From the NCBI GenBank assembly GCA_029263235.1, contig JAJCXW010000131.1:1-63726 (forward strand): DNA of 63,726 bases, read 5' to 3'. Positions 34,326 to 56,706 of the stretch are shown here, in pieces. The stretch comes from Acidimicrobiales bacterium (lineage in GTDB: Bacteria; Actinomycetota; Acidimicrobiia; Acidimicrobiales; Aldehydirespiratoraceae). Both the position numbers and the translations under genes were made by a program. The notes under the pieces are model-generated. The model made no database searches. It was not told the DNA's origin and saw only the letters and a program-made list of their open reading frames with translations. Position 1 is the first letter of the stretch. Each line of letters starts with the position of its first letter.

Positions 34326-34347
34326 CCAGGCGTGGGCAGATAACAAT

Positions 34348-34385
34348 CGGATAGAACATGGGCAGACCCCGTATAGTTCTATCCG
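34348..34385 (+). terminator. Perfect 10-bp stem hairpin downstream of the M13 peptidase stop
   Basis: CGGATAGAAC (34348-57), an 18-nt loop, then GTTCTATCCG (34376-85). It starts 23 nt after the TAG at 34323-25. Confidence 0.5.
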
Positions 34386-34607
34386 GTCGGTGACGAGAAC
34401 ACATAAAGATCCAACATCGCCGACAACGACGGGAGAGTGGCGCGCGGCCCACGGGGTCCCTATTACATTTAGTGGGGGGGGCGGTAGCTCACTCATTCTA
34501 GTCCCGTAATAGTGGACCAGTAGGGCCGGGTGTGCACGTGCGCGGGTGCGTACACAGAAAGGCGTAAATGTACACTTTACCGGCACATGGCCGGTATTGC
34601 AACCGCA

Positions 34608-34633
34608 GCGGCTGCGGCTGCGGCTGCGGCTGC
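34608..34633. repeat. (GCGGCT)4 hexanucleotide repeat in the long convergent spacer
   Basis: Read directly. Confidence 0.8.
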
Positions 34634-34786
34634 GCCGGCAGGGGGTATGCCAGGGGTTTTTTACACTAGCATCTCTGCGTTCACACGAACGCTACTCGTC
34701 CAGCATGTGACCGATTTCCAACGCTGGTGCCGGTAGCACCCGGCCTGCGCCGCCGGCCGCTACGCAACCCCTGCAGCCGAATGGGT

Positions 34787-35593
34787 CTAAGAGCTCACCG
34801 CACCCATGAAACCGACCTGGCGCCTGAGTGCGGCGGGTGGGACAGCCCCGACTCGCTCGGTGTCTGGAACGCGGCTCACGGCCAGGTGCGTACAGGCAAA
34901 CTCGTGCACGTAATCCTGCAGGTCGACGTCGATCTGCACACTCTTCAGGTACCAGCTGCCCTTTCGGCGAACCACGGTGTAGACTGCGGTCAGCATGTTC
35001 TGTTCTGGGTCCAGGGCAGAGCTCCAGTAGGCCTCACCGGTCACCTCCACCGATGTGGTGGCCTTGTTGGTGGCCCCGAGGCCCTCGATGGCCTCGGGGG
35101 ACAGGGGGACCAGGCGCACAAAGGGATAGGAGAAGGACACCATACCATCACGGATATACATCATCTTGTCGAGGGACCCACACAGCGTCCCGTCATGCTT
35201 CTTCAGGTCGTGCGTCGAGCCGTGGCTCAGCACGACAAACCGGGCAAACAGCCGCCCGCGGCCATTCCCCGTGGCGACTAGAAAGGCCCGGGTCGTTTTC
35301 TCGACGGACCCGTTGCAGGCAACCCCCGTGTCATCGATGAGCTCTGTACGCAGCAGAAACCGGTCAATGAGCACACCAGGTGTGCCCATCCAGGACATCA
35401 ACACGCCGCGTCGCTTGACCGTCCCGTCCCACGTCGCGGCCGTGCGGGCAGCAGCCATGCTAGACGTCATCCAGCCGCCAGCACCGGCGGCAATGACTGG
35501 TGCAGACGCCCCCTGGGCCGTGTCCTCTGCGTCCGTATCGGACGCGGCAGGACGTTGCCGATCGGCGGCATGCATGGTTCCGGTGCCCGCCAT
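34787..35593 (-). CDS. Hypothetical protein
   Basis: ATG-initiated 268-aa ORF with protein-like composition. A GCGTATAAGGG box and an AATGGAACAC element lie upstream. Confidence 0.5.
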   Translation of the reverse strand: MAGTGTMHAADRQRPAASDTDAEDTAQGASAPVIAAGAGGWMTSSMAAARTAATWDGTVKRRGVLMSWMGTPGVLIDRFLLRTELIDDTGVACNGSVEKTTRAFLVATGNGRGRLFARFVVLSHGSTHDLKKHDGTLCGSLDKMMYIRDGMVSFSYPFVRLVPLSPEAIEGLGATNKATTSVEVTGEAYWSSALDPEQNMLTAVYTVVRRKGSWYLKSVQIDVDLQDYVHEFACTHLAVSRVPDTERVGAVPPAALRRQVGFMGAVSS

Positions 35594-35702
35594 CGAGAGC
35601 GGCAGAGCGTGCCGGTGCCCGGATCAACGCGACCCTTATACGCGACAGAAGAACACCGATTTGAGTATCCGGTTCTCCCGTGTGTTCCATTTCCGGGGGT
35701 AC

Positions 35703-36230: not shown

Positions 36231-36251
36231 AGGACGGACCAGGGAGTTTAC
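36227..36251. terminator. GTAAA...TTTAC element formed by both stop codons at convergent junction 36230/36248
   Basis: CTGTAAAGGACGGACCAGGGAGTTTACG. Confidence 0.4.
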
Positions 36252-37675
36252 GACGCCTCGCCGCCCGGCTCCTCGCAGCCCTCCTCGTGACCTCCCGCCT
36301 CCCAGTCAAGCAGCTGGCAGGCGGTAGAGCAGTAGTGGGAGATGCGACAGCCCGTGCACCGAAAGCCGGGCGCAGGCCGCCGGCAGACTGCGCAGTGCGT
36401 GGCAAGCTGGCGCAGCATGTAGGCCGTGGCCTCGCTGCCGTCCGTCGGCGCCTGGGCCAGGCGCTCGGCCGGGTCGTAGCTGAGCAGCTTGCGGACCAGC
36501 GTGTGCAGCTCGACGCTGTCGGCGCCGGCCGGGCCCAGCCGACGTAGCTCTGCCAGCAGCACCTCTCCGTCGTCTCGGAAGAGGTCTAGGGTTACCCACT
36601 TTTCCGCGGAAAGCGGGGTGCCAATCTCCGGCCGGGGACTTCCGCGCTCCGGCAGCAGCTCTAGTGCGCTCAGCTGGCCGCCGAGCAGCTGGTACCCAAG
36701 CAGCCCGAGCTGCCAGAGACTAAAGGCCAAGAGACCGGTGGCACTCTCGGCAGACAGGCCCTCTGGCGGCAGCACCTCCAGGAGGTCCTTCAGCGCTGCA
36801 GGGGCGCAGCTGTCGCCGTCGCCACCGCCGCCGCCGCTGCTGCCACCCACGCACGCCTGCCCGTAGTCGATGACGACGACGCGCTGCGTTTCGCGGTCGT
36901 AGAGCACGTTGTCGGCCTTGAGGTCTCCGTGGGCAAGACGGCCCAGCGTGGCCGCGGCCCAGACGTGTGCCACCAGTGCCCGCATGATGCCAAGCAGCTC
37001 GGTGGCCGAGAGCTGCGGCATGCGCGCCGACAGCCGAGAGGCAAACTCCCACTGGCGCGGCCGGCTGTCCTGCGAGATGAGCGCCGTGGGCCGGTCCTCT
37101 GGTCGCAGCACTGCGTCGCGCAGCGGCAGACCGGGCGCCAGCTGCTGCACGAGCATCCAGGAAAAGTGGCTGGCCGCTCGGTGCTCCTTGTCGCCCAGTG
37201 CGCCGCCGGCGGCGGACCCGGCGGCCGTGGGCACCGGGACCGCCACCACGCCGTACTGGCGCGGCACCGTGTCAACAAAAAGACGACGGGCGGCCACTTG
37301 CTCTGCCGGCCCGGGGCCGTTGGTGTTTTCGGTCCGGAGGCGATTGCGCAGACGCTCGTAGGCCGCGTGGGCCGTCGCCTCGGCGACCAGCGCGTCAATC
37401 GCTGCGGCCGAGTCGAGCTTGGCCGTGGACACCTTTACCGCCACCGTGTCCGGCCAGGGCGGCGTCTCGGCCGAGAAGAGCTGCTCGGCGGCGCCCGGCG
37501 GGAGATTCTCAACCTCGACTGCCCACACGGCGCCAAATGCGCCGGCGCCTAGCTCGTCTCCCCGGGGCCACCAGCTGGCCGGGGCAACAAAGACGACCAG
37601 CCCGGGAATCTCGCGCAGCCGCCGGATCACCGCGTGGCTGCTCTGGCCGGCGGGAAGAGGGGCCGGCGTCGACAT
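36248..37675 (-). CDS. Ser/Thr protein kinase with C-terminal MYND zinc finger
   Basis: GAGAFGAVWAV (Gly loop), VAVKVS, HGDLKADNVLY, IDYGQA (DFG-like), LPPEGL. The C-terminal CAVCRRPAPGFRCTGCRISHYCSTACQLLDWEAGGHEEGC is a MYND motif. Confidence 0.85.
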   Translation of the reverse strand: MSTPAPLPAGQSSHAVIRRLREIPGLVVFVAPASWWPRGDELGAGAFGAVWAVEVENLPPGAAEQLFSAETPPWPDTVAVKVSTAKLDSAAAIDALVAEATAHAAYERLRNRLRTENTNGPGPAEQVAARRLFVDTVPRQYGVVAVPVPTAAGSAAGGALGDKEHRAASHFSWMLVQQLAPGLPLRDAVLRPEDRPTALISQDSRPRQWEFASRLSARMPQLSATELLGIMRALVAHVWAAATLGRLAHGDLKADNVLYDRETQRVVVIDYGQACVGGSSGGGGGDGDSCAPAALKDLLEVLPPEGLSAESATGLLAFSLWQLGLLGYQLLGGQLSALELLPERGSPRPEIGTPLSAEKWVTLDLFRDDGEVLLAELRRLGPAGADSVELHTLVRKLLSYDPAERLAQAPTDGSEATAYMLRQLATHCAVCRRPAPGFRCTGCRISHYCSTACQLLDWEAGGHEEGCEEPGGEAS

Positions 37676-37731: not shown

Positions 37732-37769
37732 ACTTAAGTGGAGAATCGTATCCGTTTACCGTGTTCCAC
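37732..37769 (-). promoter_or_regulatory. Promoter-like module of the kinase gene
   Basis: Minus strand: CAGTGGAACACGG (37761-37769 region), GTAAACGGATACG, then CCACTTAAGTCC (37732-37741), ~55 nt upstream of ATG 37675. Confidence 0.4.
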
Positions 37770-37870: not shown

Positions 37871-39715
37871 TCACGTCGGGGTGTAGGCCGGCGGGAGCTC
37901 CGAGGGTGCCGGGCCTGCGCCATCCTCCGCGCGTGCGGCGGCTATCCCGGTGGTGGGCAGCTTGCAGTAGAGCCAGGGCTCGTACAGCGGCGAGTGGCAA
38001 AGACGTTCCAGGGAAAAAGTCGGCCCATTCCTGCTCTTGCTCAGGATCATGGGCTTCAACAGCTCGTTTGGCTGGTGGCTGCCAGTGCCCGGGGTTGGCC
38101 GCGTTCCGCAAAATCCGACGCCCACTGCGTAGCCGTGGTGAGGGGCTATAGGCACAAGCAGTCGCTTGGTGGTATTCATCTGCTCAAAGGCCTTGCGGCA
38201 GGTGCGCGCATAGTCCTCCGTGAGGTCCTCAGGGAAGAGGCCGCAACCGTCAACCTTGCGAAAGTCGGCACCGTCGAGAATCAGGAGCACCGCGTGGCTC
38301 CCTACCAGCGGAAGGACGGCGCGCACTTTGTGGCGCCCGCCCAGCCCAAACGTAGCCGGTGAGGTTTTGTGATGAAACGCCCAGGAAAAGGGAATCTTGA
38401 TGCGACCAGTCTCGTACAGGTTGCTGATCTCGACGGCGTGTGCACAAGAACCCGTCTCCCTGACAGCGTCCACCTCTAGCCACAGCTCCGGCATGCGTCC
38501 CGTCTGCATGTACATGAGCAGCTCAGCGACCGAGCTAGGCGTGTCGCCAGCGCTCCCGGTACGCACCACAAACCCCGGCGTGACCTGCGATGATGGCGCC
38601 AGCTCAATCTCCAGGCATACCGACGGAGTTTTCCCGATGCCGTCCGACGCCGATGCCGCTGCCGGTGCCGGTGCCGGCTCGACGGCGCCCCAGCGCCTAA
38701 TGGCCGCCACGGTGGTCATCAGCGAGACCTCAAAGTCGCCCAGCGACGCGACCGAGGCCGCGGCAACGGCCGCCGTTGGCGTTGTCGTAGGTCGCAGCCG
38801 CGTCCGGGGATTGGCACGCGTTGCGATAAAGGCGCGCAGAGCTTCCGCTGTCTCGCCACTGGCCAGCATATCATGAAGATTGTTGTTGCACTGGTGGTAG
38901 TACTCGCATATTCTCGAGGGATGGGCCGACCCGACCAAGAGCGCGGTGATACAGAAGGTAGCACGCGAGCAGGAATCCATGGTGCCATAGTCCTCTGGCA
39001 GGCTGCGCCGCAGCCACTGCGTCGAGGCCGTAAACACGTGGGCATGGTTGATCTCCGCGAACCAGCAGAGCAGCCTGTCAAGGTCGGCATGTATGCCAGG
39101 GCGGCCTATCCGCTGGAAAAGGGCGTCGATCAGCGGCAGGTAGTCGCGGACATATTTCCACACTGCCGCTCCCTGCGCCTGGTCCACCAAAGGGCCACTG
39201 TGCGCCGTGACCCGGGCGCAAAGATGCCAGAAGCCACCAGCGCGCTCCGTGCCGATCGTGCTACCGTTGGCGCGCTCCGTGCCGATCGTGCTACCGTTGG
39301 CGCGCACCAACACCACCACGCCGGTCACCCGGTCCAGCGGCGCAGCCATTGCGGTGAGCATGCGCTGGTAGACAGGCGGAAGCCGCACGTACGTCTCGCG
39401 TCTGACCTGCAGCACCGGCGAGCCACCAGCGCCGCGCAATGTCAGCATATCCAGTAGGTTGCGGCGACAGGTGCGGCACCCGGGGCCGTCGGGGGCCTGG
39501 GCGGTGACCATGGCGGTGCATATTTCGCGCACAGCGGCGCGACCCTCTGCCATGGCCGCCTCGGACAGCGTGCCGCGCATGAGCAGAGCGACAGCAGACT
39601 CGGGCCTGCCGTCCGCACGCTGGCAAACCAGCGGCTCCAGCTCCGGCGGATGCTGCCGGAAGAGCGCAAACGCCGCCTCAAGGGTCAGCGGGTCAGCGGC
39701 GGGGTGGGCGGCCAT
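37871..39715 (-). CDS. Hypothetical protein (614 aa) with perfect 10-aa tandem duplication
   Basis: ATG-initiated. A CCATAAAAGGGCG box lies ~50 nt upstream. ANGSTIGTER x2 is encoded by a perfect 30-bp tandem repeat. Confidence 0.55.
   Translation of the reverse strand: MAAHPAADPLTLEAAFALFRQHPPELEPLVCQRADGRPESAVALLMRGTLSEAAMAEGRAAVREICTAMVTAQAPDGPGCRTCRRNLLDMLTLRGAGGSPVLQVRRETYVRLPPVYQRMLTAMAAPLDRVTGVVVLVRANGSTIGTERANGSTIGTERAGGFWHLCARVTAHSGPLVDQAQGAAVWKYVRDYLPLIDALFQRIGRPGIHADLDRLLCWFAEINHAHVFTASTQWLRRSLPEDYGTMDSCSRATFCITALLVGSAHPSRICEYYHQCNNNLHDMLASGETAEALRAFIATRANPRTRLRPTTTPTAAVAAASVASLGDFEVSLMTTVAAIRRWGAVEPAPAPAAASASDGIGKTPSVCLEIELAPSSQVTPGFVVRTGSAGDTPSSVAELLMYMQTGRMPELWLEVDAVRETGSCAHAVEISNLYETGRIKIPFSWAFHHKTSPATFGLGGRHKVRAVLPLVGSHAVLLILDGADFRKVDGCGLFPEDLTEDYARTCRKAFEQMNTTKRLLVPIAPHHGYAVGVGFCGTRPTPGTGSHQPNELLKPMILSKSRNGPTFSLERLCHSPLYEPWLYCKLPTTGIAAARAEDGAGPAPSELPPAYTPT
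39241..39300. repeat. Perfect 30-bp tandem duplication (x2) inside gene 37871-39715
   Basis: 39241-39270 is identical to 39271-39300 (cgcgctccgtgccgatcgtgctaccgttgg). It is in frame and encodes ANGSTIGTER twice. Confidence 0.9.
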
Positions 39716-39758
39716 TGCGGGTGTGCAGGTAGAAGAGCCGGATGGATCAGCCGGGTCG

Positions 39759-39800
39759 CCCTTTTATGGCCACCGGCCCATCGCATGCGAGTGTTCCATT
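39759..39800 (-). promoter_or_regulatory. Promoter-like module of gene 37871-39715
   Basis: On the minus strand: CAATGGAACACTCGC, ~20 nt, then CCATAAAAGGGCGACC ~50 nt upstream of ATG 39715. Confidence 0.45.
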
Positions 39801-39913
39801 GGGTTTCCAACGCGACCGGTTGATGGCAGCGGTACGCGGCGACTGGCCAGCCTACGCCGTGCCCAGGAGTTCCCGGGTCCGCGCTCGTCGCAGTACAAAC
39901 GGACGGATGTGTC

Positions 39914-39963
39914 GGAACATTCCGGCCGGGTGTTCCACTCGCCGGTGGCCGCTACATATAACC
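39914..39963 (+). promoter_or_regulatory. Promoter-like module of gene 40008-41615
   Basis: GGAACATTCC (39914-39923), then TGTTCCAC, then the CATATAACC box (39954-39963) 54 nt before the ATG. It lies in a divergent spacer, so no terminator is expected there. Confidence 0.45.
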
Positions 39964-40007
39964 CAAACGTTCCGCGCAGGCCGACCAACGCTGCGGTCGG
40001 CAACCCG

Positions 40008-41615
40008 ATGCAGCAAGCCCCTCTGCGCACAGAGGCGGCCGGGGCGGGGGTGTTCCGACCGGAGCAGATGCTGCGAAAACAGGCAACCCTGAATGCGGCG
40101 GTCGCGGCAGTTGCCGCGACTGCCTCGCCCGCCTCCACGGAGGCCGAGACCACCGCCGCCATGGCGGAACCACCCGCGGCGGCGGCTGCCGCACCGGTCG
40201 CCACACCCGGCCCTGCAGTAGCGGCCGCCGCAGCGGCCGCCGCAGCGGCCGCCGAGGAGGCTTCCGCCGAGGAGGCTTCCGCAGCCGCTACGGCGGCCGC
40301 GGCGGCCGCGGCGGCGACCGACGCAGCAACCGCAGCCAAGGTCGACGCGGCACTGGAGTACGAGTGGATGACCCTGGCCAGTCTGATTCAGGCGCCGTCT
40401 GACCCGCTGGTGTTTCGGTGGGCCGATGCCGACCAGCGGGTTCAGCTGTCTGACCTGCGTGTCCTCCAGAATGACCAACTTCTCACCCGCACCAACCAGC
40501 TGATCATGCTGCGCGGGCATAACGCAACGCACGGACAGGCGGCAGGACAGCTCCTGACCGCGTACCGGGGCCGTCACCGAGCGGGTATGTTGGCAGAGTC
40601 AAGTGCACTGGTGCAAGGAAAGCCGCCCCAGGCGGCCATGCGCGACCGGCTTATGGCAGAGGCCGCGGCCGCCGAGGGCACAGAGCAGGAGGTAGACCGG
40701 CTGCTGTCAATCCACCGGGAAGGTCTCATCTCTGGGCTGAAGATGCGGCACATGGCAGAGCAGCAGCTGACGCGTGCAGTGGAGGACACGATGCTGACGG
40801 TTCGGCTGCTGACGAGTGTCGAGGACTACGCCAAGCAGACAGAGCAGGCATGGATAACAGGCCGAGACGCCGCCATCCGCGTGTACAACGCGAAATATAC
40901 GGCCTTGGCGAACAAAACAGAAAAACACCTCGAGAAGAAGTGGGCGGATAGACTGAAAACGGCACAGGGCGACATTCTCCGTCTGCAGGACACGGCCAAG
41001 AAAAAGGAGCAGGCAGTCCGTGCTGCATACCGAGCATACGAGCGCACGATTCTGTCCCTAAGCACCACCCTGCAAGCCAAGCAGCAAACCCTGGCGGCAC
41101 AGGCCACGGAGATTTCCACCCTGCGGGAGATCGAGGCCCTTCTGCGAGCCGAGCCGCGGACGGCGACGGCCAGCACTCAGACACCGGAGCAGCTGGCCGT
41201 AGCTGCGATCGTCCAGCCGGCGCGAGACGAGCAGGTGCGACAGGCAGCGGACGCCGCGACCCAAGTGAACCCGCCCGTGCCGCCGCCCTACTCTGTCGTG
41301 ATTGTCACCGGGGACGCCGAGGACGCCGAGGGCGCCAGCGAGGCAGACCTCGCGGCCAAGCGGCCGCCGCCGCCGCCGCCTGCCGGAGAAGACAGCGACA
41401 GTGAGTGGCGCCCGGTTGCCAGACGGCCCAGGAAGCGGGCTCGTCGCACCGTGAAGGTGACCACCCCGCGCCCAGAGGATTTTACGGCAGCAGAGCAGGC
41501 GGACACACCGGTGGCACCGGAAGAGCAGGCCGGACAGGAAGCCCGGCGGACAAAGAGAATGTGTCGGGCCATTAAGATGCTGTCCGGTGACATGGATGCC
41601 TACTGGGCGCTGTAG
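40008..41615 (+). CDS. Ala-rich / coiled-coil protein
   Basis: The ORF is trimmed to ATG 40008, 54 nt downstream of the CATATAACC box. It has an N-terminal poly-Ala/Glu tract, long heptad-like central region, and a basic C-terminal tail. Confidence 0.55.
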   Translation: MQQAPLRTEAAGAGVFRPEQMLRKQATLNAAVAAVAATASPASTEAETTAAMAEPPAAAAAAPVATPGPAVAAAAAAAAAAAEEASAEEASAAATAAAAAAAATDAATAAKVDAALEYEWMTLASLIQAPSDPLVFRWADADQRVQLSDLRVLQNDQLLTRTNQLIMLRGHNATHGQAAGQLLTAYRGRHRAGMLAESSALVQGKPPQAAMRDRLMAEAAAAEGTEQEVDRLLSIHREGLISGLKMRHMAEQQLTRAVEDTMLTVRLLTSVEDYAKQTEQAWITGRDAAIRVYNAKYTALANKTEKHLEKKWADRLKTAQGDILRLQDTAKKKEQAVRAAYRAYERTILSLSTTLQAKQQTLAAQATEISTLREIEALLRAEPRTATASTQTPEQLAVAAIVQPARDEQVRQAADAATQVNPPVPPPYSVVIVTGDAEDAEGASEADLAAKRPPPPPPAGEDSDSEWRPVARRPRKRARRTVKVTTPRPEDFTAAEQADTPVAPEEQAGQEARRTKRMCRAIKMLSGDMDAYWAL

Positions 41616-41637
41616 GCGGGCACACGGGGCGAGTAGA

Positions 41638-41651
41638 GTAAACTGATTTAC
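41638..41651. terminator. Bidirectional GTAAAC...TTTAC element at convergent junction 41615/41648
   Basis: GAGTAAACTGATTTACAC. The plus copy is 23 nt after the TAG, and the minus copy contains the TAA stop of gene 41648. Confidence 0.45.
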
Positions 41652-42466
41652 ACATCAGAGCAGTGCTGGCCCATATGGCCGCTAAAGGCACAAAAGGTGC
41701 CGTAGGAAAACGATCTGCCATCATACATGCACCGCATACAGGCGTACTCGCCGGCGTCAGCATGCTCTTCCATGCTGTGGTGCACAAGCCCGCCGGTGGT
41801 CGAAAATACCGCCTGCTCGTCGGGGCAGAGACTACACCTGAATACCCCCCGACACTGGTGACTACGCCAGGCGTCCTGGAGCGACACCTTTAGCGGAGGG
41901 ATGTCGGAGACTTCGCGCGTCGCCGGATGCGGGTCCAGCTGCTCCGGGCACCAGGGACAGTCGGGTGCCACGACACGAACGGGGGTGCGTTCGGTGCAAG
42001 CCGGTGCCGCCGGTGGCACCATAGGACCCCGCTTGGTAGGCCGGTGGGCTGCCCTCTTTGCCGCCTCCATCGCCTCCAATGCCATCATCGTTTTGGCCAT
42101 CGGGTACCGCATGTGCTGCCGCTGGTGGGCGCGCCAGGCATTGCGGCCCACCAACTATGCTGCACAACCGACCTCTTGGCACCTCCGCGGTCGGTGCAGC
42201 AGGCGGAGGTGTCGCGCTAGGTTCCGCGGCAGCCGGCTGACGTTACACCCCTCCTCGGGGCAAAATACACGACAGGAACCGGCACCGGCGCCGGCACCGG
42301 CTCCGGCTCGGCAGAGGGGACAGGGCGCCGAGGCGCGGGCCAGTATGCGGAGACAGCGCACGCAAAACTCGTGGCTGCAGGAAGGGAAGCTACGACGGCT
42401 CCCGGGCGCAGGAAGCTCCTCGAAACAGACGGGACACTCGTCTTGCTCCTCGTCTTGACAGGCCAT
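41648..42466 (-). pseudogene. RING + multi-C2H2 zinc-finger ORF interrupted by one in-frame TAG (42155-42157)
   Basis: ORFs 42155-42466 (RING CPVCFEE...CSHEFCVRCL...CPLC plus a C2H2 finger) and 41648-42154 (further C2H2-like fingers) share one frame. A single TAG separates them and falls inside CQEVGCAA*LVGRNAWRAHQRQH. This may be a nonsense allele, a sequencing error or readthrough. Confidence 0.55.
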
Positions 42467-42522
42467 CGCGAAACAGTACAGGAGCGGAAGGGCGGAATAG
42501 GGACAGACGAGCGTGTGCCCTC

Positions 42523-42562
42523 GGTTATATGCAGGCGCCGAGCACTGAGAGAATGTTCCATT
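42523..42562 (-). promoter_or_regulatory. Promoter-like module of the RING/zinc-finger gene
   Basis: On the minus strand: AATGGAACATTC (42551-42562), ~20 nt, then the GCATATAACC box (42523-42532), ~60 nt upstream of ATG 42466. Confidence 0.45.
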
Positions 42563-42573
42563 GTTAAGCGGAA

Positions 42574-42594
42574 AGAGGTTCTATAGAGTCCTCT
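42574..42594 (-). terminator. Nested palindrome downstream of gene 42603-43685
   Basis: AGAGG ttctatagagt CCTCT, with the inner 8-nt palindrome TCTATAGA, starts 9 nt after the stop. Confidence 0.3.
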
Positions 42595-42602
42595 AAGCAA
42601 TT

Positions 42603-43685
42603 TTACGCTGCCACCGGCGCAGCAACTGCCGTGTTTCCGGTGGCCAGCTCCGCATCCAGTCCCGCAAGAAGCGCATGCACGCGCTCTGCACATCGGCCCG
42701 AGTCGAGCTCGGCCAAGACATCGGCATGTAGCTCAATGCCCAGTGTGACTAGAAAGGAGCGCAGGTTCCCCCCATTCAGCCGCTGCAGCCAACCGGTAAG
42801 CTCTTTGCGGAGGCTGCTCTCCGATTCGTGCAGCTCTGTTTGTAGCATCGCCGCGATCGCCTTTGAGGGCAGCTTGCGCAGGATCAGCCCGAAGAAGGGT
42901 CCGGCTGCGGGGTCGATCTGTGCGGCCGGTCGCCCGACCAGCATTGCATCGACGCCAATCACCTGCGGGTGCCCACCATCCACCCGGGCGGGTCCAACGC
43001 AGAGCAGGTTGCTCAAGTTGCTGTCTGGCACGGCAAACATTGCCCGAAAGCACAGCTCAACAATGGTCCAGTAGAGGACCCAGTCGAGGTGATCTTTGTG
43101 CTCAGCCGCGGGTGGGACCCCCTTCAGCCATTGGCCAACCTTTGCGATACCGGCCCGCTCCCGGTCGACGATGCGCTGGCCGAGATGCTCCATCGTTGGC
43201 AGCATCTCACCGCGCTTCAGGATGCCCTTGGTGCAAAAGCCACTCGGGTAGGCCAGATCATCGGCCACCAGGCCCCACAAAGCTGCCTGGCCAGCTGCCT
43301 GGGCGCCCAGGCGGATCGCGCGAAAACCGCAAGTCGACGCATCAAAGAACACCCCACGCAGCTTGTCCAGATCCTGTTGCACGTAGCACTCGCCGCATGG
43401 GGCCAGCTTGGCCCAGCGATGCCGCAGCACTTCATTGCCGGGCTCGCGCACTGCGCCATGCAGCGAGAGGCCGCGGCTGCCCACTGGCACCTGGGCCAGA
43501 ACCATCTCGACCAGCACGCTGCCTGGAGGAGTGTCAAAAAGCAGCAGGCGCTCGCCATCGGTCCTCTGGCGCTCCACATGGCCTGCGACCCGCTCCAGCT
43601 GCGCCTGCTTCGCCGCGGCGATCCGCGCCCGCTTGGCCTCGGGCTCTTCTGGGCCGCCGCCCTCGCGCTTGCGCTTGCTGCTCAT
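42603..43685 (-). CDS. Hypothetical protein (360 aa) with NLS-like basic N-terminus
   Basis: ATG-initiated (MSSKRKREGGG...) with protein-like composition. Tandem GGAACATTCC palindromes lie upstream. Confidence 0.55.
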   Translation of the reverse strand: MSSKRKREGGGPEEPEAKRARIAAAKQAQLERVAGHVERQRTDGERLLLFDTPPGSVLVEMVLAQVPVGSRGLSLHGAVREPGNEVLRHRWAKLAPCGECYVQQDLDKLRGVFFDASTCGFRAIRLGAQAAGQAALWGLVADDLAYPSGFCTKGILKRGEMLPTMEHLGQRIVDRERAGIAKVGQWLKGVPPAAEHKDHLDWVLYWTIVELCFRAMFAVPDSNLSNLLCVGPARVDGGHPQVIGVDAMLVGRPAAQIDPAAGPFFGLILRKLPSKAIAAMLQTELHESESSLRKELTGWLQRLNGGNLRSFLVTLGIELHADVLAELDSGRCAERVHALLAGLDAELATGNTAVAAPVAA

Positions 43686-43740
43686 CTGGCCAACTGGACG
43701 GCCGCGGCGCTGGTGGTTCGAGGTGGCGGGCGGGCAGCCG

Positions 43741-43784
43741 AGTTAAGTAAACGATGGAACATTCCATCCGACGGAACATTCCAT
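43741..43784 (-). promoter_or_regulatory. Tandem GGAACATTCC palindromes plus ACTTAAC box upstream of gene 42603-43685
   Basis: (AT/AC)GGAACATTCCATC occurs twice with a 17-nt period (43756-43765 and 43773-43782). The two self-complementary copies could also pair as a 10-bp hairpin just downstream of the stop of gene 43801-44205. GTTTACTTAACTCGG is at 43741-43753 (minus strand). Confidence 0.45.
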
Positions 43785-43800
43785 CAGACAGATGTTCGAT

Positions 43801-44205
43801 TTACCGGCCCGTTCTATCCGGGGTCGGTGCATCCGGTCGCCGCGCCCGCGCCCGCTCACGCTCCCATTCGCATACCTGGCACCACGCCGCTCTGACCAGC
43901 GCATCGCCGTGTCGCGCGCGCAGCCAGCGCTTAAGCTCGAGCACCAAAAGGCACCGCTGCTCTCGCGTCTGCTCCGTGTCCGTGTCGATCACGCGCCCAA
44001 ACGAGCAGCCGCGATCTGCACGACAGAGGGCGTGGGCCGCCGCCAGCTCCAGCGTTTCGGCGGGCAGCGCCCGTCGCCAAAGCTCAACCGCCCGCTGGCT
44101 GCCCTTGGCCGGATAGGGCCGGGGTAGACGGTCAAAGAAGACGGCCTGTGCACCGACGAGCGTCGGCAGAGCGATCGGTTCAGTCGCAAACGGGCTTTCC
44201 GCCAT
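43801..44205 (-). CDS. Hypothetical protein
   Basis: The ORF opens at GTG 44223 and the first ATG is at 44205 (MAESPF...). A CTGATAAGCGCAGCGGG box lies upstream. Confidence 0.4.
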   Translation of the reverse strand: MAESPFATEPIALPTLVGAQAVFFDRLPRPYPAKGSQRAVELWRRALPAETLELAAAHALCRADRGCSFGRVIDTDTEQTREQRCLLVLELKRWLRARHGDALVRAAWCQVCEWERERARARRPDAPTPDRTGR

Positions 44206-44382
44206 CTGCCTGTATCTGTACACGGTGTGAGAACCAGCGGGGCGGGGTGGCGGACGGGAGGAGACGGTGCGGGCAACACCCGCGACCCGCTGCGCTTATC
44301 AGGCACCAGGCGGTGCCACCGAGCAGTACGGATCCACCCACCCGGTTGGGCCGTCGAGTGGAACGCACGGATGTTCTGTGGC

Positions 44383-44421
44383 GGAACATTCGGCGGTTCT
44401 ATCGATCGACCGACATAAAAG
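44383..44421 (+). promoter_or_regulatory. Promoter-like module of gene 44466-45653
   Basis: GGAACATTCG (44383-44392), gcgg, TTCTATCGATCGACCGA, CATAAAAG (44414-44421), 52 nt before the ATG. It lies in a divergent spacer. Confidence 0.5.
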
Positions 44422-44465
44422 CGGCGACCCTGTTCCCGGTGCTATCCTCCCCCCGTCTACCTGCG

Positions 44466-45653
44466 ATGGCCTGGATGCGCGGAGAGACCTACTGGGGGCG
44501 GCGGGGGCAGCGCGTGTCGTTCTGCCTTCCGGGCGGCGGAGAGCAGCGGCAGACTGCGCGCACGAATGGGCTGATCTACTCAGCGCTGCAAAAGGCCGCG
44601 CGGCGCGCAGACCGGCCGGCCCTGTGTGCATTTGTCCTCGAGCTGTGCATGGGAGGGAATACAGGCGCGGCAATCAAGCGCCTCGGCGTGGTGCTGGCAG
44701 AGGATTTTCACATCGAGGGCGCGCGGCGCCTGCCGGCATTTTGGCGTCTTCAGAAGCGGGCCGCCCGCAAGGATTGCTCAGCCGCCGAAAAAGAGCGCAT
44801 TGCGCTGAGCCTGTGCAGCCTCCTGCTTGATCTTCCGGCCTGGCGCGGCGCGGCCGAGCTGGCCTCGGTCGGCCTGGCACTCGCGCAGACTGCCCCGGTG
44901 CTCAGCGCGGCGGCGCGGCTGGCCGAGCTGGCCGCACAGGAGGCGGCGGCAGCAGCAGCTGTGTCGCCACATTCTGCTGCGCTGGAGCGGGTGCAGCAGC
45001 TGGCCGGAGCGGTGGAGCAGTGGGTGCTCTGCACTCCCACCCGGGCTGAGCAGCGCAAGGCTCCGGGGGGCGACTGGGCCCTGGAGCCGCAGCGCCTGGG
45101 CGCGTCGATCGTGCGGCTGCTGGCCGCAGAGCTGGGCCCGGCCCGGCTGACCGGGCGACCGCTGGTGGGGCAGCTGATCTGCGAGTTTTCCCGCCTGCAC
45201 TGCCTGGCCGCAACAACCGGCAGCACTCACCGGCTCTATCTCTATGGGGCCGTCTGGGCAGCGGTGGTGGCGCCCGGCACACCGGTGCAGCCCCTGGAGA
45301 TTCCCCTGCTCTCCGCCGAGCAGTGCGCCGATATGCGTCGGCTGTATGGCGCCGAGCCCGCGCCGGTGCCAGACTATGCGCTGGACAAGCACACCTCGGT
45401 GGGCCGCTCCCAGCTGCGTCGAGGACTTGAGCATTTTCTCACCGAGGGGGTGCATCTCCACCGGCCGCTCTACTGCCCGGAGAAGGCCGCGCTTGTCGGC
45501 GGCGAGGAGGCCGCGGCGGCCCTCGGTGTCCAGGCAGCATCCAAGGCGGCCTATCGGCGCTGGGCGGCGAGCGGGACCGCCTGTAAGTCTGGCGCACAGC
45601 GCGCCGCGTGGGCGGCGCAGCAGGCGGCGGCGGCGGCGGAGCATAACGAGTAA
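44466..45653 (+). CDS. Hypothetical protein (weak resemblance to MgsA/RarA C-terminal helical domain)
   Basis: Trimmed to ATG 44466, 52 nt downstream of CATAAAAG. LIYSALQKAARRADRPALCAFVLELCMGGNTGAAIKRLGVVLAEDF loosely recalls the ISAxxKSxRGSDxDAALYWLARMxxxGEDPxxIARRLxxxAxEDIG pattern. No ATPase motifs are present. Confidence 0.45.
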   Translation: MAWMRGETYWGRRGQRVSFCLPGGGEQRQTARTNGLIYSALQKAARRADRPALCAFVLELCMGGNTGAAIKRLGVVLAEDFHIEGARRLPAFWRLQKRAARKDCSAAEKERIALSLCSLLLDLPAWRGAAELASVGLALAQTAPVLSAAARLAELAAQEAAAAAAVSPHSAALERVQQLAGAVEQWVLCTPTRAEQRKAPGGDWALEPQRLGASIVRLLAAELGPARLTGRPLVGQLICEFSRLHCLAATTGSTHRLYLYGAVWAAVVAPGTPVQPLEIPLLSAEQCADMRRLYGAEPAPVPDYALDKHTSVGRSQLRRGLEHFLTEGVHLHRPLYCPEKAALVGGEEAAAALGVQAASKAAYRRWAASGTACKSGAQRAAWAAQQAAAAAEHNE

Positions 45654-45706
45654 AGTTCCTGAGATTGAGCAAAACTGTGATTTACGCCGCAAGTCGCCGC
45701 CGGCGG

Positions 45707-46369
45707 TCATTGTACGGACGCCGGTGGCGCGGCCACCCCGCCGGCCGTGTCTTCCGCGTCCTCTCCGTGCAGTAGAGCAAGGTGCCGGAGGCGCTGCCGC
45801 CGGTTGGTTGTACCGCGCGGGCCAGTCTGCCCCACGGCGCTGCCACCGTTGGGCGTGCTGGCACCGTGGGGCCAGCGTCCGCCCAGGTGTTCCTTGCACA
45901 TCCTCCTGTACTCTGGGCTTGGCGCGCGGCACCACTCGACGTACACCGCATTGGCCCGACTGATCGCTTCGTGCTCGCACTCGTCACAGCTATGCCTGTA
46001 GTCTGGGCACTTGAAGCCGGTGATCCAGCGTGCCCCGGTGGCTTCGATCCGGGTCCCGAGCGGATGGTAGTCTTTCTCGGTGGGCTGCCACAGACACGCC
46101 TGGTTCCACACCATCCAGGTGTACTCGCCGCCGCCGATCGCCGTGTCGTAGCACCGGCTTGAGAGTTCCTGGCCAAACTCCATCATGTGCCGTTTGCGCG
46201 ACTTGGCCGTCTGTGCACCCAGCGCCTCACCAAACCCCACGATCCAGCCCCAGCACCCTGTGCCGGTCTCGGCCTCCTCCCGCTGCGTCGCTACGGCAGG
46301 TTGCGCCTTTCGTGCCTTTCGCGCCTTCTGCGCTTTGTGCTTCTCCGCGGGTGCCGTCTCTGCTTGCAT
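45707..46369 (-). CDS. Hypothetical protein, basic N-terminus, Cys/Trp-rich core
   Basis: ATG-initiated 220-aa ORF with a GGCATAAAACGGC box ~55 nt upstream. Confidence 0.5.
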   Translation of the reverse strand: MQAETAPAEKHKAQKARKARKAQPAVATQREEAETGTGCWGWIVGFGEALGAQTAKSRKRHMMEFGQELSSRCYDTAIGGGEYTWMVWNQACLWQPTEKDYHPLGTRIEATGARWITGFKCPDYRHSCDECEHEAISRANAVYVEWCRAPSPEYRRMCKEHLGGRWPHGASTPNGGSAVGQTGPRGTTNRRQRLRHLALLHGEDAEDTAGGVAAPPASVQ

Positions 46370-46417
46370 CTCCTGCCGGTGACTGCAAATAACACCGACT
46401 GTGTGGTGCGGCTTGCC

Positions 46418-46427
46418 GTTTTATGCC
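46418..46427 (-). promoter_or_regulatory. Core box GGCATAAAAC for gene 45707-46369
   Basis: Minus-strand GGCATAAAACGGC lies ~55 nt upstream of ATG 46369. Confidence 0.4.
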
Positions 46428-46517
46428 GGAGGACAGTGTGCAACGCCCAGAGAGCCGGCTGCCTTCTATCGCCGGCTCGAAAAGAACACGTAAAGGAATC
46501 CGGATGGTGGTGACCAT

Positions 46518-46541
46518 GGAACATTGTCGGTTTCTATAAAG
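46518..46541 (+). promoter_or_regulatory. Promoter-like module of the ubiquitin-domain gene
   Basis: GGAACATTG (46518-46526), tcgg, TTTCTATAAAG (46531-46541), 51 nt before ATG 46585. The layout matches the 44383 module. Confidence 0.5.
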
Positions 46542-46584
46542 ACGCCTGCCCTGGGTCCGGTGGCCCACTCTGCAACACCCCGAG

Positions 46585-47655
46585 ATGGCGCCCAAAAAGG
46601 CTGCCACCCGCGCCGCCAAGACCACCCGGGCCGCCGCGAAACCGGCCAAGGTCACGACCAAGCTGGGCAAGTACACCAAGATCCCGACAGAGCGAATGGC
46701 GCTGGTTCAGCGGCTGAGTGACCTGGTGGACGGAGCCATGCTGCAGTCGTCAGAGGCAGCAGACCCTCGGATGGCCGTGTTTGACGCAGAGCTGAAGCGG
46801 CTGCTGCACAAGGGCGCCCGCTGGAAGTACGCATCAAAAAAGCAGCGGGTTACGGCCATGGCTGCACTGGCTGCCCGCGCGCCAGGCGCTGCCGCTGCCA
46901 CTGGTGTCCCCTTGGCCGTCCCCTTGGCCGTCCCCGTGGCCGTCCCCGTGGCCGTCCCCGTGAAGCCAGAACAGCGCGAGTGGGCGCCGCCGCCACCTGG
47001 CCAGATGGACGTGTTTGTGAAGACGCTGACCGGGAAGACCATCAGCATCCGCCTCCGGCCAAGCTGGACATTTGCACTGCTGAAGCGGGCCATTCAGAAA
47101 AAGGAGAGCATCCCGCCGGACCAGCAGCGGCTGATCTTTGCCGGAAAGCAGATGGAGGACGGCAAGACCCTGCTGAGCCAGAACATACAGCACGAGTCCA
47201 CCTTGCACCTGGTGCTGCATCTGCGTGGCGGCATGATGCACGTGACCAGCGGCCGGGACAATATGAAGGCCGCACAGCTGCCCGACTCGCAGCCGTACTG
47301 GGCCGAGCTGGAGGCACCCGAGCCCGATGGTGGCAGAATGGGCGTGCAGCTGTACCGCGGCAATCGGCTCTGTGAGCACCTGAGCGATATGCAGGGCTGC
47401 ACCGTCACCCGCCTGCTAGGCCTGATGCTCGACCTGGATTCGCGCCGCAAAGAAGAGGCAAAGCGGGGCGGCCTACGCTCTGCCGAGCACCCACAGCTGC
47501 AGTCGTGCATCCAGCTCTCTGACGCGCGCCGCGCCGGCGTGCGCCGGCTGCGCGTCTGCTACCAGCCGGCGCCCGCCCAGCCGCCAGGGGGCGGCAGCGG
47601 TGGTGACGCAGAGGACGTAGCAGGGGAGGAGTCTGCTGCCGCGGAGGAGCGGTGA
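46585..47655 (+). CDS. Ubiquitin-domain protein with Lys-rich N-terminal extension and C-terminal extension
   Basis: Residues 141-216 (nt 47005-47232), [76 protein letters not shown], are ~70% identical to ubiquitin as I recall it. A TTTCTATAAAG box lies 51 nt upstream of the ATG. Confidence 0.85.
46906..46962 (+). repeat. 12-nt tandem repeat x4.7 (VPLA/VPVA) in the ubiquitin-domain gene
   Basis: gtccccttggcc x2, gtccccgtggcc x2, then a partial unit. Confidence 0.85.
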
Positions 47656-50363: not shown

Positions 50364-53300
50364 TCACACCCCGCTAGAGTCCCCGGCCTCGTCGGGCGCG
50401 TCTGCGTCGGCAGCCGCAACCACCGCTGGCATCTCGTCCGTCCCACCCAGCGGCGCACCGACGGGCGCGAGCACGGAAACCGTGTTAACGGCGGCAGCGG
50501 CAGCGGCAGCTTTCATCCCGGCCCGCACGGCGCGGATCCCCGGAACAGCCTCTGGTAGCAACGATTGGCTGCGCATGTCTGCGTCTCCGATGATCCAATT
50601 GGACCAAACCCGCGCCGTCGTCACGTCTGTGTCGGGGTCGAGGCCGAGGTCGCGCACTGCGTTGCGAAACGTGACAAAATCCGGCTCCTCTGGGTACGAC
50701 AATCTCTGCTTCTGCGCCATCCTGGCCAGTCCCGCCGGGTCGGCCCCAAGGATGATCGCGAAAAGCACTATGTTGTGCGCCCGGCTGTGAGAGCCGGAAG
50801 AGTGGCGTTCCTCGAGCAGCCACCGAAACACCGACGGGTGCCCGTCGAATAGTCGAGCCGCCCGCGATTTCAAGTGGAAATCCACCAACGCGAAAATCAG
50901 CGACCGTTCATCTTGCGCCGACAGTGGGGTCTTGCCAGTGCAATTCTCGTCCCCGGTAAGGTACCCGCGGAGCAGGCCAGAGTTGTTCAGACTGGCGTCG
51001 GCACCGTCGATGCTGGCAATGGCGTCAGCTCTAGTGTGGGCGATATCTCTAACGTGGACGTCGACATGGGCGTCGGCGTCGGCGTTGGCTGGCCAGAGGA
51101 GCAGATAAACCCGCTCAATGTCTCCCAGGCAAACTGCCTCTGTCAGCAGACGCGGCTGGAGCACGGGCCGTGCGCGCAGCTCGCCGAGCGCCGGCCCGAT
51201 CCGCCATTTGATCATTGACGTAGGGACGTCGTGGGGGTTCTCGTATCCACGCACCAACAAGAGGCTGTCTGTCATAAGTTGTGATCCGTGTGCCGCGATC
51301 CAGGCGTCCGCCTCGCGTCGATCCTGGTCCCCGTGGAGAGAAAACTCGTACGGCGCCCCATCTGACGGCCAGGCGCGGAGAATTCCCAGCTGCACCAGTC
51401 GGTTGACCGCGGGCTGGTGTTCCTTGTTGTTGCGGTCCAGGAACCGGCCAGTCCACCAAGGCCCGGGAGGTCCTAGCATCAGCAAGCATGCTAGCCCCGC
51501 CGCCGCCGCCTCTCTCTGCTCGTTGGCGTCGTACCGGTCCAATCGTGCGCAATCGTTGATTATAGCGGGGTCGGGTATTAGGTGGATTAACACTTCCCGA
51601 TGAATCGAGGCACGAAGCAGGTCACTCATCACAATGGAGGGATGCGTCATCACGTGGGTAATGCACTCTACATCCGGTCCCCTGATCGTGCGGTGCGGGT
51701 TGATAGGGTTCTCTTCGGCATCTCGCCGCGGGAAAACTGCCTTGGTGCGCAGACACCGCGTAAACAGATCGACAACAGCGCGCTGACAAAGTTCTACTGG
51801 CCCAGGCACGAGATCTTGCACTGCCTGGCTCAGCAGACAGTCTACCATTTCCACCGTGTCGCAGTTGGAGAACAGGCACGCATAGAGGGGCATGTTTCCG
51901 TCCCCCTGTACCATGCGCGCCCATGTGGTGCTGTTGGTGTCACTGCGCCGGTTCGCGGCCTGCAGTGCTCGCATCAGCACGTCGGGCTCTCCTCGTTGCA
52001 CGACGCAGCAGAGCAGCCTTCGAAGGTCTCCGACGCGCACTGCCCTTGCCGGCACAGATGGCCGGGGCTGCGTGTCAGCATAGGCGACAACCCCGCTGAT
52101 GAAAATCTCCAGCAGACGCGGAGGTCCCCGCTGGGCAACCGTTTCCAGCGCCGTGATGCTTAGATCGGCCACCTTGGCGGGTTCTGCTCCCGGGAGGCCA
52201 CTGGGGGCAGACCAGGTGAGGAGGTCGCCGATCGTTTCCACCGATTGGTTGCAGATTTCCACGCTTGCACGCACGTCGACATGCTTCCAAACGCTTGGGT
52301 ACCGGTCGATGCACACTAACACCTCGGTTTTGAGCAGGCTGGACCAGTAAGCAGATGGCGAGGTCTGTAGCTCGTGCAGTCGAGTCAGGGGGTCCGGGGT
52401 AAAAGTGTCATGGAGAGGGTCATAAAAGTGATGACGGACCACAGTTTCGTGGGCCAACAGTTGTCTGACCTGCCGGCGTGGGATGCGACCAATCTCTCCG
52501 AGTGACTCAAACATGTCCTCGCGGTTCTTGTTGTCCCATAACGCTTCTGGTCCCACGGACAAGGCGCGAAGGACAGACGGCACACGGCTGGTCATCTTCT
52601 CCACCTGCATCGATTCGCAGAGCAGCGTGTTGGACACGCGTCTCAGCACAGAAAGCAGCGTCGTCGGTTTCGTGTGCTGCGGTGCCGGGGCAAACCGGTC
52701 CGAATCATCAGAGGCGTCGAGCGCGACACCAACATCCACCAGCTTGCCCAGAAAGATCGCAAGCGCGCCCGTCTCCGGTCTGAATTCTGGAAACAGAAAC
52801 GGCTTCGGGGTAGCCAGTGTGTGTAACCAGTGCAGCCACAGCTGCGGGTCGAGCACGAGCGAGCGCATCTCCGGGCAGCTGGTGCCCAGCACAACCAGGA
52901 CCGGCACCGGCGCCGGTTGGCGGCCGGCTCGCAGCACCTCTGAGACGAGGATTGGCGGGAGGGCAAAGATCAGCGAGCCCGGTGCGATCGCGTCCAGAGC
53001 AACCCCGCTGCCCAGCGTGGTCGCCGCAGCCTCCGCAGCCTCCGCAGCCTCTGTCGGTGTCGGCGCAGACTGCACACCCGTGCTCGTCCGGGAGCGTTTT
53101 GCCGCCGGGCGCCCGCCGTCATCCGATTTTCTCTTTTTCGCGCCGCCGGATCCATCGGCCGTCCCCACCGGCCCGGCGTCGTCTACCTCCACGTCTACCT
53201 CCACGCCGCAGGCACTGCGTTCCGCCATCAGCACGTCCCGCAGCTCGTCGCGGGCTGCGGCCGGTGAGGCGGAAAAGCTCGACCGCTCACCGGCTGCGGA

Positions 53301-53879
53301 AAACCACCTAACGTCGGCGATGAGCGCCTCCGGTGCCGTAGCCGCCAGCCGACTGGCCATCTCCAGACAGGCAACATCCGCAAGACGATACAGCTGGATC
53401 ACGGGTGCATAGACAAGCAGGTTGCAGAAGCTCTGCGGGCCCAGTGCCGCCACCAGCTCCTGCTCCCACGCAAAGGCCTGGGAGCCGGTAGCGGAGGTTG
53501 TGGCGAGCTCGGAAAAAGACAAATCCCGGTCGGTGCCTTTGACCGCCCAGCTGTCCACGGCTGTCATGACATCTTGCGGCGCCCCAAGCTCCAGTGGCGT
53601 CGACTGCCCGGACGCCGTGTTCGCCCAGCCCAGCAGGTCGAACCTTCTGGCCTCAGCCCAGCACGTGGGGGGCGCCACGCTCGGCGGCTGCTGAAAGTTG
53701 TCGGGATTCCGCCGAATCTGCATGAGCAGGGTGGGGTAATGGCCCAGGCGGCTCAGAAGCAGCCGATGGCTGCTCCCGTCCGAGCAGCACACATTGACGG
53801 ATCGGCCCCAGTCAATGCCCAGCTCTCTTCCGCGCAGTATATCGAAGGGAATCTGGTGCTTGACGTGCACCGGCGCCAT
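50364..53879 (-). CDS. Large hypothetical protein (1171 aa)
   Basis: The ORF opens at GTG 53921. ATG 53879 (MAPVHVKHQ...) lies ~55 nt downstream of the CCATAAAAGGGCGG box. It has degenerate helical repeats, and the C-terminal two-thirds is encoded by GC-poorer DNA. Confidence 0.6.
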   Translation of the reverse strand: MAPVHVKHQIPFDILRGRELGIDWGRSVNVCCSDGSSHRLLLSRLGHYPTLLMQIRRNPDNFQQPPSVAPPTCWAEARRFDLLGWANTASGQSTPLELGAPQDVMTAVDSWAVKGTDRDLSFSELATTSATGSQAFAWEQELVAALGPQSFCNLLVYAPVIQLYRLADVACLEMASRLAATAPEALIADVRWFSAAGERSSFSASPAAARDELRDVLMAERSACGVEVDVEVDDAGPVGTADGSGGAKKRKSDDGGRPAAKRSRTSTGVQSAPTPTEAAEAAEAAATTLGSGVALDAIAPGSLIFALPPILVSEVLRAGRQPAPVPVLVVLGTSCPEMRSLVLDPQLWLHWLHTLATPKPFLFPEFRPETGALAIFLGKLVDVGVALDASDDSDRFAPAPQHTKPTTLLSVLRRVSNTLLCESMQVEKMTSRVPSVLRALSVGPEALWDNKNREDMFESLGEIGRIPRRQVRQLLAHETVVRHHFYDPLHDTFTPDPLTRLHELQTSPSAYWSSLLKTEVLVCIDRYPSVWKHVDVRASVEICNQSVETIGDLLTWSAPSGLPGAEPAKVADLSITALETVAQRGPPRLLEIFISGVVAYADTQPRPSVPARAVRVGDLRRLLCCVVQRGEPDVLMRALQAANRRSDTNSTTWARMVQGDGNMPLYACLFSNCDTVEMVDCLLSQAVQDLVPGPVELCQRAVVDLFTRCLRTKAVFPRRDAEENPINPHRTIRGPDVECITHVMTHPSIVMSDLLRASIHREVLIHLIPDPAIINDCARLDRYDANEQREAAAAGLACLLMLGPPGPWWTGRFLDRNNKEHQPAVNRLVQLGILRAWPSDGAPYEFSLHGDQDRREADAWIAAHGSQLMTDSLLLVRGYENPHDVPTSMIKWRIGPALGELRARPVLQPRLLTEAVCLGDIERVYLLLWPANADADAHVDVHVRDIAHTRADAIASIDGADASLNNSGLLRGYLTGDENCTGKTPLSAQDERSLIFALVDFHLKSRAARLFDGHPSVFRWLLEERHSSGSHSRAHNIVLFAIILGADPAGLARMAQKQRLSYPEEPDFVTFRNAVRDLGLDPDTDVTTARVWSNWIIGDADMRSQSLLPEAVPGIRAVRAGMKAAAAAAAVNTVSVLAPVGAPLGGTDEMPAVVAAADADAPDEAGDSSGV

Positions 53880-53928
53880 TACCGCACGGCCAGGAGGCGG
53901 GGGCGGGACGGGAGGCGGCACACCACCG

Positions 53929-56689: not shown

Positions 56690-56706
56690 CCGCGGGTCGG
56701 AAGGGG

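Follow-up and report, generated by a model that had tools for sequence, protein, structure and literature searches.

The stretch of DNA analyzed here (the window) comprises the 63,726 nucleotides of contig JAJCXW010000131.1, deposited in assembly GCA_029263235.1 as an Acidimicrobiales bacterium. Its spacers carry recurrent copies of a short element with the core GAACA, the longest form of which, GGAACATTC, had been described in a first-pass annotation as part of a heat-shock-element-like palindrome. The G+C content lies between 64 and 73% along the whole window (67% overall). Our own codon-usage gene caller placed about 39 densely packed genes on it, with about 90% of the sequence coding and a total of 6.1 kb (9.6% of the window) of spacer DNA. 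Recognizable products include the pair of largest RNA polymerase subunits, RPB1 (15416-20695, plus strand) and RPB2 (23352-27722, minus strand), a deoxynucleoside kinase and a kinase with a MYND finger, an M13 peptidase and a haem peroxidase, VPS9/MORN, ankyrin and collagen-like proteins as well as a ubiquitin-domain protein, a RING finger and a protein with an HSF-type domain; the remaining genes of the window had no family match.

Word-indexed protein searches with the HSF-like protein, RPB2 and RPB1 returned at most about 36% identity over a substantial alignment outside the window. Among the 5.8 billion proteins searched, of which only relatives having 5-residue words in common are reached, the maximum was about 36% for RPB1 and 32% for RPB2, with identities of about 25-36% for the two subunits. 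The top matches of RPB1 were green algal RNA polymerase II (Pol II) subunits, and RPB1 was found to be without the C-terminal heptad repeat domain of Pol II. Since both subunits are highly divergent and RPB1 is devoid of these repeats, the window does not represent a cellular Pol II locus. The divergence indicates a very deep or fast-evolving viral lineage, and the window is best described as an unclassified, deep-branching, GC-rich giant-virus-like contig. A phage origin was rejected, as megablast of positions 39000-47000 against phage records gave no match.

The five copies of GGAACATTC listed in the first-pass annotation (39914, 43756, 43773 and 44383 on the plus strand and 42551-42559 on the minus strand) were all recovered, as were the near copies GGAACATTG at 46518 (plus strand) and GGAACATCC at 15268-15276 (minus strand). 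The expected number of GGAACATTC copies was 0.14, and none of 100 dinucleotide-preserving shuffles reached the five observed. The 10-mer GGAACATTCC is whole at 39914, 43756 and 43773, while its last base is a G in the 44383 copy and a T in the 42550 copy. On our codon-usage gene map, all seven copies are located outside of coding sequence and four of them in divergent spacers (15206-15415, 39716-40007, 44206-44465 and 46370-46584), both of which agree with the placement initially reported. The claim of a perfect palindrome fails: the reverse complement of GGAACATTCC is GGAATGTTCC, and its 4-bp arms GGAA and TTCC flank a non-symmetric CA that breaks the symmetry, so that the word is not a strict palindrome. 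It does match the two-unit pattern nGAAnnTTCn, as had been stated.

Analysis of word frequencies in the spacers by first-order Markov simulations revealed GAACA as the top 5-mer (34 observed, 7.8 expected) and GGAACA as the top 6-mer (18 observed, 2.3 expected, z 10.7), with AGAACA at 11 observed and 1.1 expected. GAACAT and GAACAC were also high, as were the TATA-like words ATAAAA and CATAAAAG. Counted separately against chance, CATAAAAG occurred 7 times (0.13 expected) and TGGAACA 10 times (3.8 expected). The comparison of intergenic with coding sequence that the first-pass annotation had proposed, run here on the window, gave 2.96 GGAACA per kb of spacer and 0.19 per kb of coding sequence, a 15-fold difference in density (18 of the 29 copies in the window are in spacers), and all copies of GAACATTC are located in spacers. 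The de novo search that had been proposed along with it, again on the window and over all of its spacers, returned GAACA and GGAACA as the top words beside TATA-like words. Alignment of the 34 spacer copies of GAACA yielded the consensus (G/A)GAACA(C/T), hereafter RGAACAY, often with a T preceding GG; TGGAACAC and GGAACATTC are each represented five times. The extension TTC follows GGAACA in five of the 18 spacer copies, far above the prediction from base composition, and GGAACATTC is therefore a real sub-class rather than a chance tail. We consider GGAACATTC(C) likely to be the longest variant of an upstream element that has GAACA as its core and takes the form (T)GGAACA(C/T) or AGAACA(C/T). 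The GGAACATTC form is found mainly in a run of six promoters (39.9 to 46.5 kb), suggesting that the genes there form a co-regulated cluster.

The copies of this element hold a defined position relative to start codons and to a second sequence, a TATA-like box with the consensus CCATAAAAG. This box, identified by a de novo expectation-maximization search of the region from -110 to -15 of all genes, is present 40-95 nt before the ATG in most of them, with examples at 39761-39769(-), 44413-44421(+), 53930-53938(-), 54747-54755(+), 62048-62056(-) and 62128-62136(+). Forward GAACA units cluster 20-45 nt upstream of the TATA-like box and reverse units at -12. About half of the genes bear one or more GAACA units, mostly directed towards the gene, and 14 of the 16 co-oriented RGAACAY copies are found between -116 and -67 from the ATG, with none between -66 and -1. 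The density of RGAACAY declines from divergent (5.7 per kb) over tandem (4.3) to convergent spacers (1.9), where both copies are confined to one unusually long spacer of 461 bp (34326-34786). TATA-like words follow the same order (6.5, 3.8 and 0 per kb), in contrast to the 3' word GTAAA/TTTAC (0.9, 3.8 and 10.7 per kb). Because RGAACAY tracks the TATA-like words and opposes the 3' word, it behaves as a promoter element, and the GAACA element is probably a promoter-proximal upstream element of this giant-virus-like contig.

Closer examination of the individual sites revealed that six of the seven copies listed earlier are co-oriented with a gene, 67-94 nt before its ATG and ahead of a TATA-like box, the distance to which is 20-39 nt in five scored copies and shorter for the copy at 46518. 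The GGAACATTCC upstream element at 39914-39923(+) precedes gene 40008-41615(+) by 94 nt to the ATG and 39 nt to the TATA-like box ACATATAAC (39954-39962, plus strand, 54 nt before the ATG), and the divergent gene 37871-39715(-) is preceded by TGGAACA(C) at 39792-39798(-), 82 nt from its ATG and 27 nt from CCATAAAAG at 39761-39769(-). The copy at 44383 is part of an imperfect palindrome of four units, GGAAC-N8-GTTCT-N6-GGAACATTCG-...-GTTCT (44359-44403, plus strand), and stands 83 nt from the ATG of gene 44466-45653(+) and 29 nt from ACATAAAAG at 44413-44421. The ubiquitin-domain gene 46585-47655(+) has the near copy GGAACATTG (46518-46526, plus strand) 67 nt upstream of its ATG, followed by CTATAAAG at 46534-46541, and the near copy GGAACATCC (15268-15276, minus strand) is located 71 nt before the ATG at 15205 of gene 12842-15205(-) and 26 nt from CTACAAAAG at 15241-15249(-). 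Further TGGAACA(C) copies precede gene 34787-35593(-) (35683-35689, minus strand, 95 nt to the ATG) and the kinase/MYND gene 36248-37675(-) (37762-37768, minus strand, 92 nt to the ATG). Another, at 53946-53952(+) in the divergent spacer 53880-54108, is in reverse orientation 13 nt before the CCATAAAAG box of gene 50364-53879(-). The two elements together also pointed to a gene that the codon-usage caller had skipped: the RING-finger gene 42155-42466(-) (103 aa, start at 42466) was found because a promoter consisting of GGAACATTCT (42550-42559, minus strand, 93 nt to the ATG) and, 26 nt from it, GCATATAAC (42524-42532, minus strand) stands before it. The remaining site is a direct doublet of GGAACATTCC (43756-43782, plus strand, 17 bp start to start), which is reversed 77-94 nt before the ATG of gene 42603-43685(-).

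The candidate binder of the element encoded in the window is a partial HSF-type DNA-binding-domain protein of 247 aa (6858-7601, minus strand). It had been presented as an HSF-type DNA-binding domain with an intact recognition helix, and this proved correct as far as the Pfam threshold (PF00447 HSF_DNA-bind, 26.8 bits vs a cut-off of 22, E 7.6e-06) and the helix itself are concerned (SFTRQLNLYGF, which includes the DNA-contacting Arg and has S, F, R, Q, L, Y, G, F and K as invariant columns). The domain appears to be partial: the match covers the C-terminal half of the profile only (positions 48-100 of 100) and the alignment shows a shortened helix 2 with an 8-residue deletion at its end (LPxYFKHxN). 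An exhaustive HMMER search of 1.84 billion representatives retrieved only two relatives, both of the eukaryote type and with several HSF domains each. The AlphaFold model has a modest confidence (pLDDT 65), a helix 2 of one turn and a helix 1 of low confidence; the top 12 Foldseek matches in the PDB were all HSF or Skn7 DNA-binding domains, at template modelling (TM) scores of only 0.39-0.47. Residues ~185-230 towards the C-terminus look helical by eye. It is plausible that the protein is a DNA binder able to read GAA; that it would be the binder of the element seems doubtful.

Heat-shock elements are made up of inverted nGAAn units in 5-bp phase and are bound by HSF trimers; real ones have at least three units, their n positions are free and the central dinucleotide varies. 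The first-pass annotation had interpreted the copies as dimeric heat-shock elements bound by the virus-encoded protein 6858-7601, an interpretation that agrees with a promoter function and would in addition specify the binder. Of this interpretation, the non-random cis element in 5' spacers and the two-unit match held up: five spacer copies of GAACATTC/GAATGTTC place their units in 5-bp phase, and the excess of the TTC extension over base composition points in the same direction. It is also favored by the threshold, recognition helix, eukaryotic multi-HSF-domain relatives and DNA-bound structural matches of the protein, by the AGAACAT and GGAAC units in the spacer ahead of its own gene, and more weakly by the RING-finger and ubiquitin-domain products of two of the genes behind GGAACATT-type copies, ubiquitin genes being classical HSF targets. 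The interpretation accounts, however, for only five of the 34 spacer copies of GAACA, while the other 29 are without an in-phase TTC partner. No three-unit array of either pattern is present in the spacers, as the first-pass annotation had itself cautioned, nor is any TTCnnGAA; the only GAAnnTTC words there are the five GAACATTC, all with CA in the center, and other centers are confined to coding sequence. Units are spaced by 10-13, 17 or 23 bp rather than by multiples of 5, and the distances from GAA to TTC have maxima at 5 (the motif itself) and 13 but do not include 15, so that a phased gapped or step-type heat-shock element is ruled out. Most neighboring GAAC/GTTC units are 10-12 bp apart (GGAAC-N8-GTTCT occurs twice within 44361-44399 and once at 53948), close to one helical turn, which points to cooperative binding along a single DNA face rather than to the 5-bp alternation of a heat-shock element. 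With a partial profile match that lacks eight residues of helix 2, a low-confidence model and a pairing of protein and element that rests on their co-occurrence in the window, we regard a dimeric heat-shock element bound by this protein as an improbable explanation. A modified version appears slightly less probable still. In it, a reduced HSF-type factor of a deep-branching GC-rich giant virus, its recognition helix intact but its helix 2 truncated, would have switched from phased heat-shock elements to single GGAACA units arrayed at a spacing of about one helical turn and would drive about half of the viral promoters, including those of the RING-finger and ubiquitin-domain genes. At a similarly low level we place the possibility that the element is the site of a host transcription factor, possibly the host HSF, borrowed since the viral genes use host-type TATA promoters. 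In favor are the eukaryote-like look of the promoters, whose TATA-like box stands 40-95 nt ahead of the ATG, and the fact that no further DNA-binding protein could be recognized among the genes of the window; against it, the contig has genes for RNA polymerase subunits of its own, which are highly divergent.

A different function was considered in which the copies are 3'-end or termination hairpins, as in other giant viruses, rather than promoter elements. The minus-strand RNA of 43725-43805, which includes the doublet, folds to -29.6 kcal/mol (z -3.9, with none of 200 shuffles as good), in line with the earlier caution that the pair at 43756/43773 could form a hairpin. This hairpin immediately follows the stop codon of gene 43801-44205(-), and it is flanked by GTAAA...TTTAC arms of the kind seen at other gene ends. 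In addition, GGAAUGUUCC is self-complementary if G-U pairs are allowed, and the 42551 copy follows a stop codon by 44 nt. On the other hand, no transcript ends in divergent spacers, which hold four of the seven copies, and convergent spacers are poor in RGAACAY. Read from the plus strand, the RNA of the doublet folds poorly (z -0.7), and single copies fold no better than shuffled sequence (z -0.3/+0.4 for 39914, +0.65 for 42551 and -0.07 for 46518), which eliminates hairpin formation as a general explanation. The region 44355-44425 also folds (z -3.2) but sits in a divergent spacer and reflects the four-unit DNA palindrome. A bacterial promoter/terminator scan flagged the doublet hairpin, but such a scan is uninformative for this genome. 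Given the divergent spacers, the unfolded single copies and the rarity in convergent spacers, the hairpin reading applies at most to the doublet; for the copies as a whole we judge it very unlikely, whereas a second role of the doublet as a 3'-end signal may be envisaged, though it is less likely than not. Least probable of all is an origin of the copies by chance or as remnants of duplicated or mobile sequence. The location of all five exact copies inside 4.5 kb would favor such an origin. Against it, the flanks of the copies are dissimilar beyond the motif, indicating that the copies were kept independently and not duplicated, and whole-window repeat finding detected no repeat family over them (only GC-rich trinucleotide-like low complexity and coding repeats). 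The shuffles, the window-wide recurrence of the core and its fixed promoter positions effectively refute this explanation.

The preferred reading, a promoter-proximal upstream element, is opposed by several observations. Seven of the 18 spacer copies of GGAACA are off the standard position or orientation, and the 43756/43773 doublet runs opposite to the closest gene start and is located within a 3' hairpin. The gene map derives from self-made codon-usage models, the data are limited to a single 64-kb contig and its roughly 38 promoters, start sites and expression classes are deduced from sequence, as is the function of the TATA-like box, and no close relative was found in the collections searched. 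These points all reduce the strength of the reading, which we nonetheless hold with good confidence: the element is most likely a real, position-specific promoter element of a new lineage. In the mechanism we propose for it, a sequence-specific transcription factor would recognize the arrays of GAAC/GTTC units, probably as an oligomer, an expectation based on the spacing of the units, often near one helical turn, and on the symmetry that some arrays show. This factor would help to bring the TATA-box-dependent initiation machinery to one class of viral genes that is plausibly temporal.

Searches for the element and its genes elsewhere provided no counterpart. A search of viral contigs for relatives of gene 44466-45653 and RPB2 found none. 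Among the contigs of three distant RPB2 matches, two were low in G+C or unrelated, and in the third (L017), which is GC-rich, the motif was absent and upstream regions were A-rich. The tandem pattern GGAACATTCC-N0-30-GGAACATTCC had 15 matches in viral contigs, all of 34-55% G+C and consisting of unrelated repeats or operator-like sites, and none of the 16 matches of the composite GGTGG-N0-1-CCATAAAAGGGCG in metagenome contigs resembled this genome.

Several other features of the window became apparent. Gene 3' ends carry the word pair GTAAA...TTTAC (e.g. GTAAACTGATTTAC and GTAAACATTTAC), with examples in the convergent spacers 41616-41647, 56690-56778, 23290-23351 and 21745-21770, and this pair is probably a bidirectional 3'-end or termination signal. 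The word GCCGGTG/CACCGGC is enriched in spacers (18 vs 2.4 expected; e.g. 7770-7790, 15330-15350 and 35610-35630) and may mark the region of the start site, as it is often located 15-30 nt after the TATA-like box. The long spacer 34326-34786 contains, in addition to its two RGAACAY units, one ATAAAG and a strong hairpin formed from GGATAGAAC...GTTCTATCC (z -3.4), and it may hide a small gene or non-coding RNA; GATAGAAC/GTTCTATC recurs across other spacers (5 vs 0.2 expected). A perfect 7-bp inverted repeat (GTGTTCT-N13-AGAACAC) at 12810-12841 flanks a CAAAAG box before gene 12353-12718(-) and immediately follows the stop codon of gene 12842-15205(-). A plus-strand CATAAAAG near 52421, in a region of lower G+C (about 0.64), lies within the 1171-aa minus-strand open reading frame (ORF) 50364-53879; a plus-strand ORF of 309 aa (52483-53412) has its ATG 62 nt downstream of this word. 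The gene model is accordingly uncertain there. ORF 860-6067(-) encodes a protein of 1735 aa made of many Cys-rich repeats, whose repeat families have periods of ~330-430 nt, and it weakly matches the Dictyostelium CTDC repeat. Finally, ARAGORN called a 96-nt tRNA-Ala(GGC) at 23989-24084(+), within the coding region of RPB2 but on the other strand; this call is likely to be a false positive.

Among giant viruses, promoter signals have been described for A/T-rich members; the early promoter motif of Mimivirus is AAAATTGA (reviewed in PMC5294985). For GC-rich giant-virus lineages we found no promoter motif reported: the 2018 pandoravirus comparative paper does not mention promoters, and two reviews give no promoter motif for pandoraviruses or mollivirus. 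The window offers a compact and testable grammar for a GC-rich lineage, composed of a GGAACA-type element, the TATA-like CCATAAAAG box and GTAAA...TTTAC gene ends. Such a grammar could aid gene calling in ORFan-rich, GC-rich viral contigs, where it has already revealed the missed RING-finger gene, and could define expression classes. Our literature search found no paper on a virus-encoded HSF-type factor. If the HSF-like protein were the binder, it would clearly exemplify how a virus can capture a eukaryotic stress transcription factor and direct it to new targets, resulting in a virus-owned pair of factor and cis element derived from a eukaryotic stress regulator.

Comparison with known systems places the element closest to giant-virus promoter motifs. 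It shares with heat-shock elements the two inverted nGAAn units of five copies (GAACATTC), and with the heat-shock system a protein with an HSF-type recognition helix encoded in the same window; unlike heat-shock elements, it has neither three-unit nor gapped 5-bp-phase arrays, its central dinucleotide is invariant, most members of the family (TGGAACAC, AGAACAC) lack a second unit, and the typical unit spacing is 10-12 bp. The palindromic 3'-end signals of giant viruses known as the "hairpin rule" (summarized in PMC8557863) are resembled by the doublet 43756/43773 in its strong hairpin directly after a stop codon, in contrast to the other copies, which are divergent and unfolded, and to the general 3' word of this window, which is GTAAA...TTTAC. 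The nearest known kind of element is the class-specific promoter motif of giant viruses. From these motifs the window element differs in being unrelated in sequence and not A/T-rich, in being located upstream of a separate TATA-like box instead of forming the core promoter itself, in its GAAC/GTTC arrays, and in the lineage that carries it, which is unclassified, RPB1 being at most 36% and RPB2 at most 32% identical to any match over a substantial alignment. The immediate-early motif of Medusavirus is palindromic (GCCATRTGAVKTCATRTGGYSRSG), enriched in spacers, located 40-70 bp upstream and present in divergent but not convergent spacers (PMC8557863). Like these promoter motifs, the window element is short, strongly enriched in 5' spacers and present ahead of a large fraction of genes; as with the Medusavirus motif at 40-70 bp, it keeps a fixed distance from the start codon (67-116 nt upstream), and by the same test as applied to Medusavirus (PMC8557863) it favors divergent over convergent spacers.

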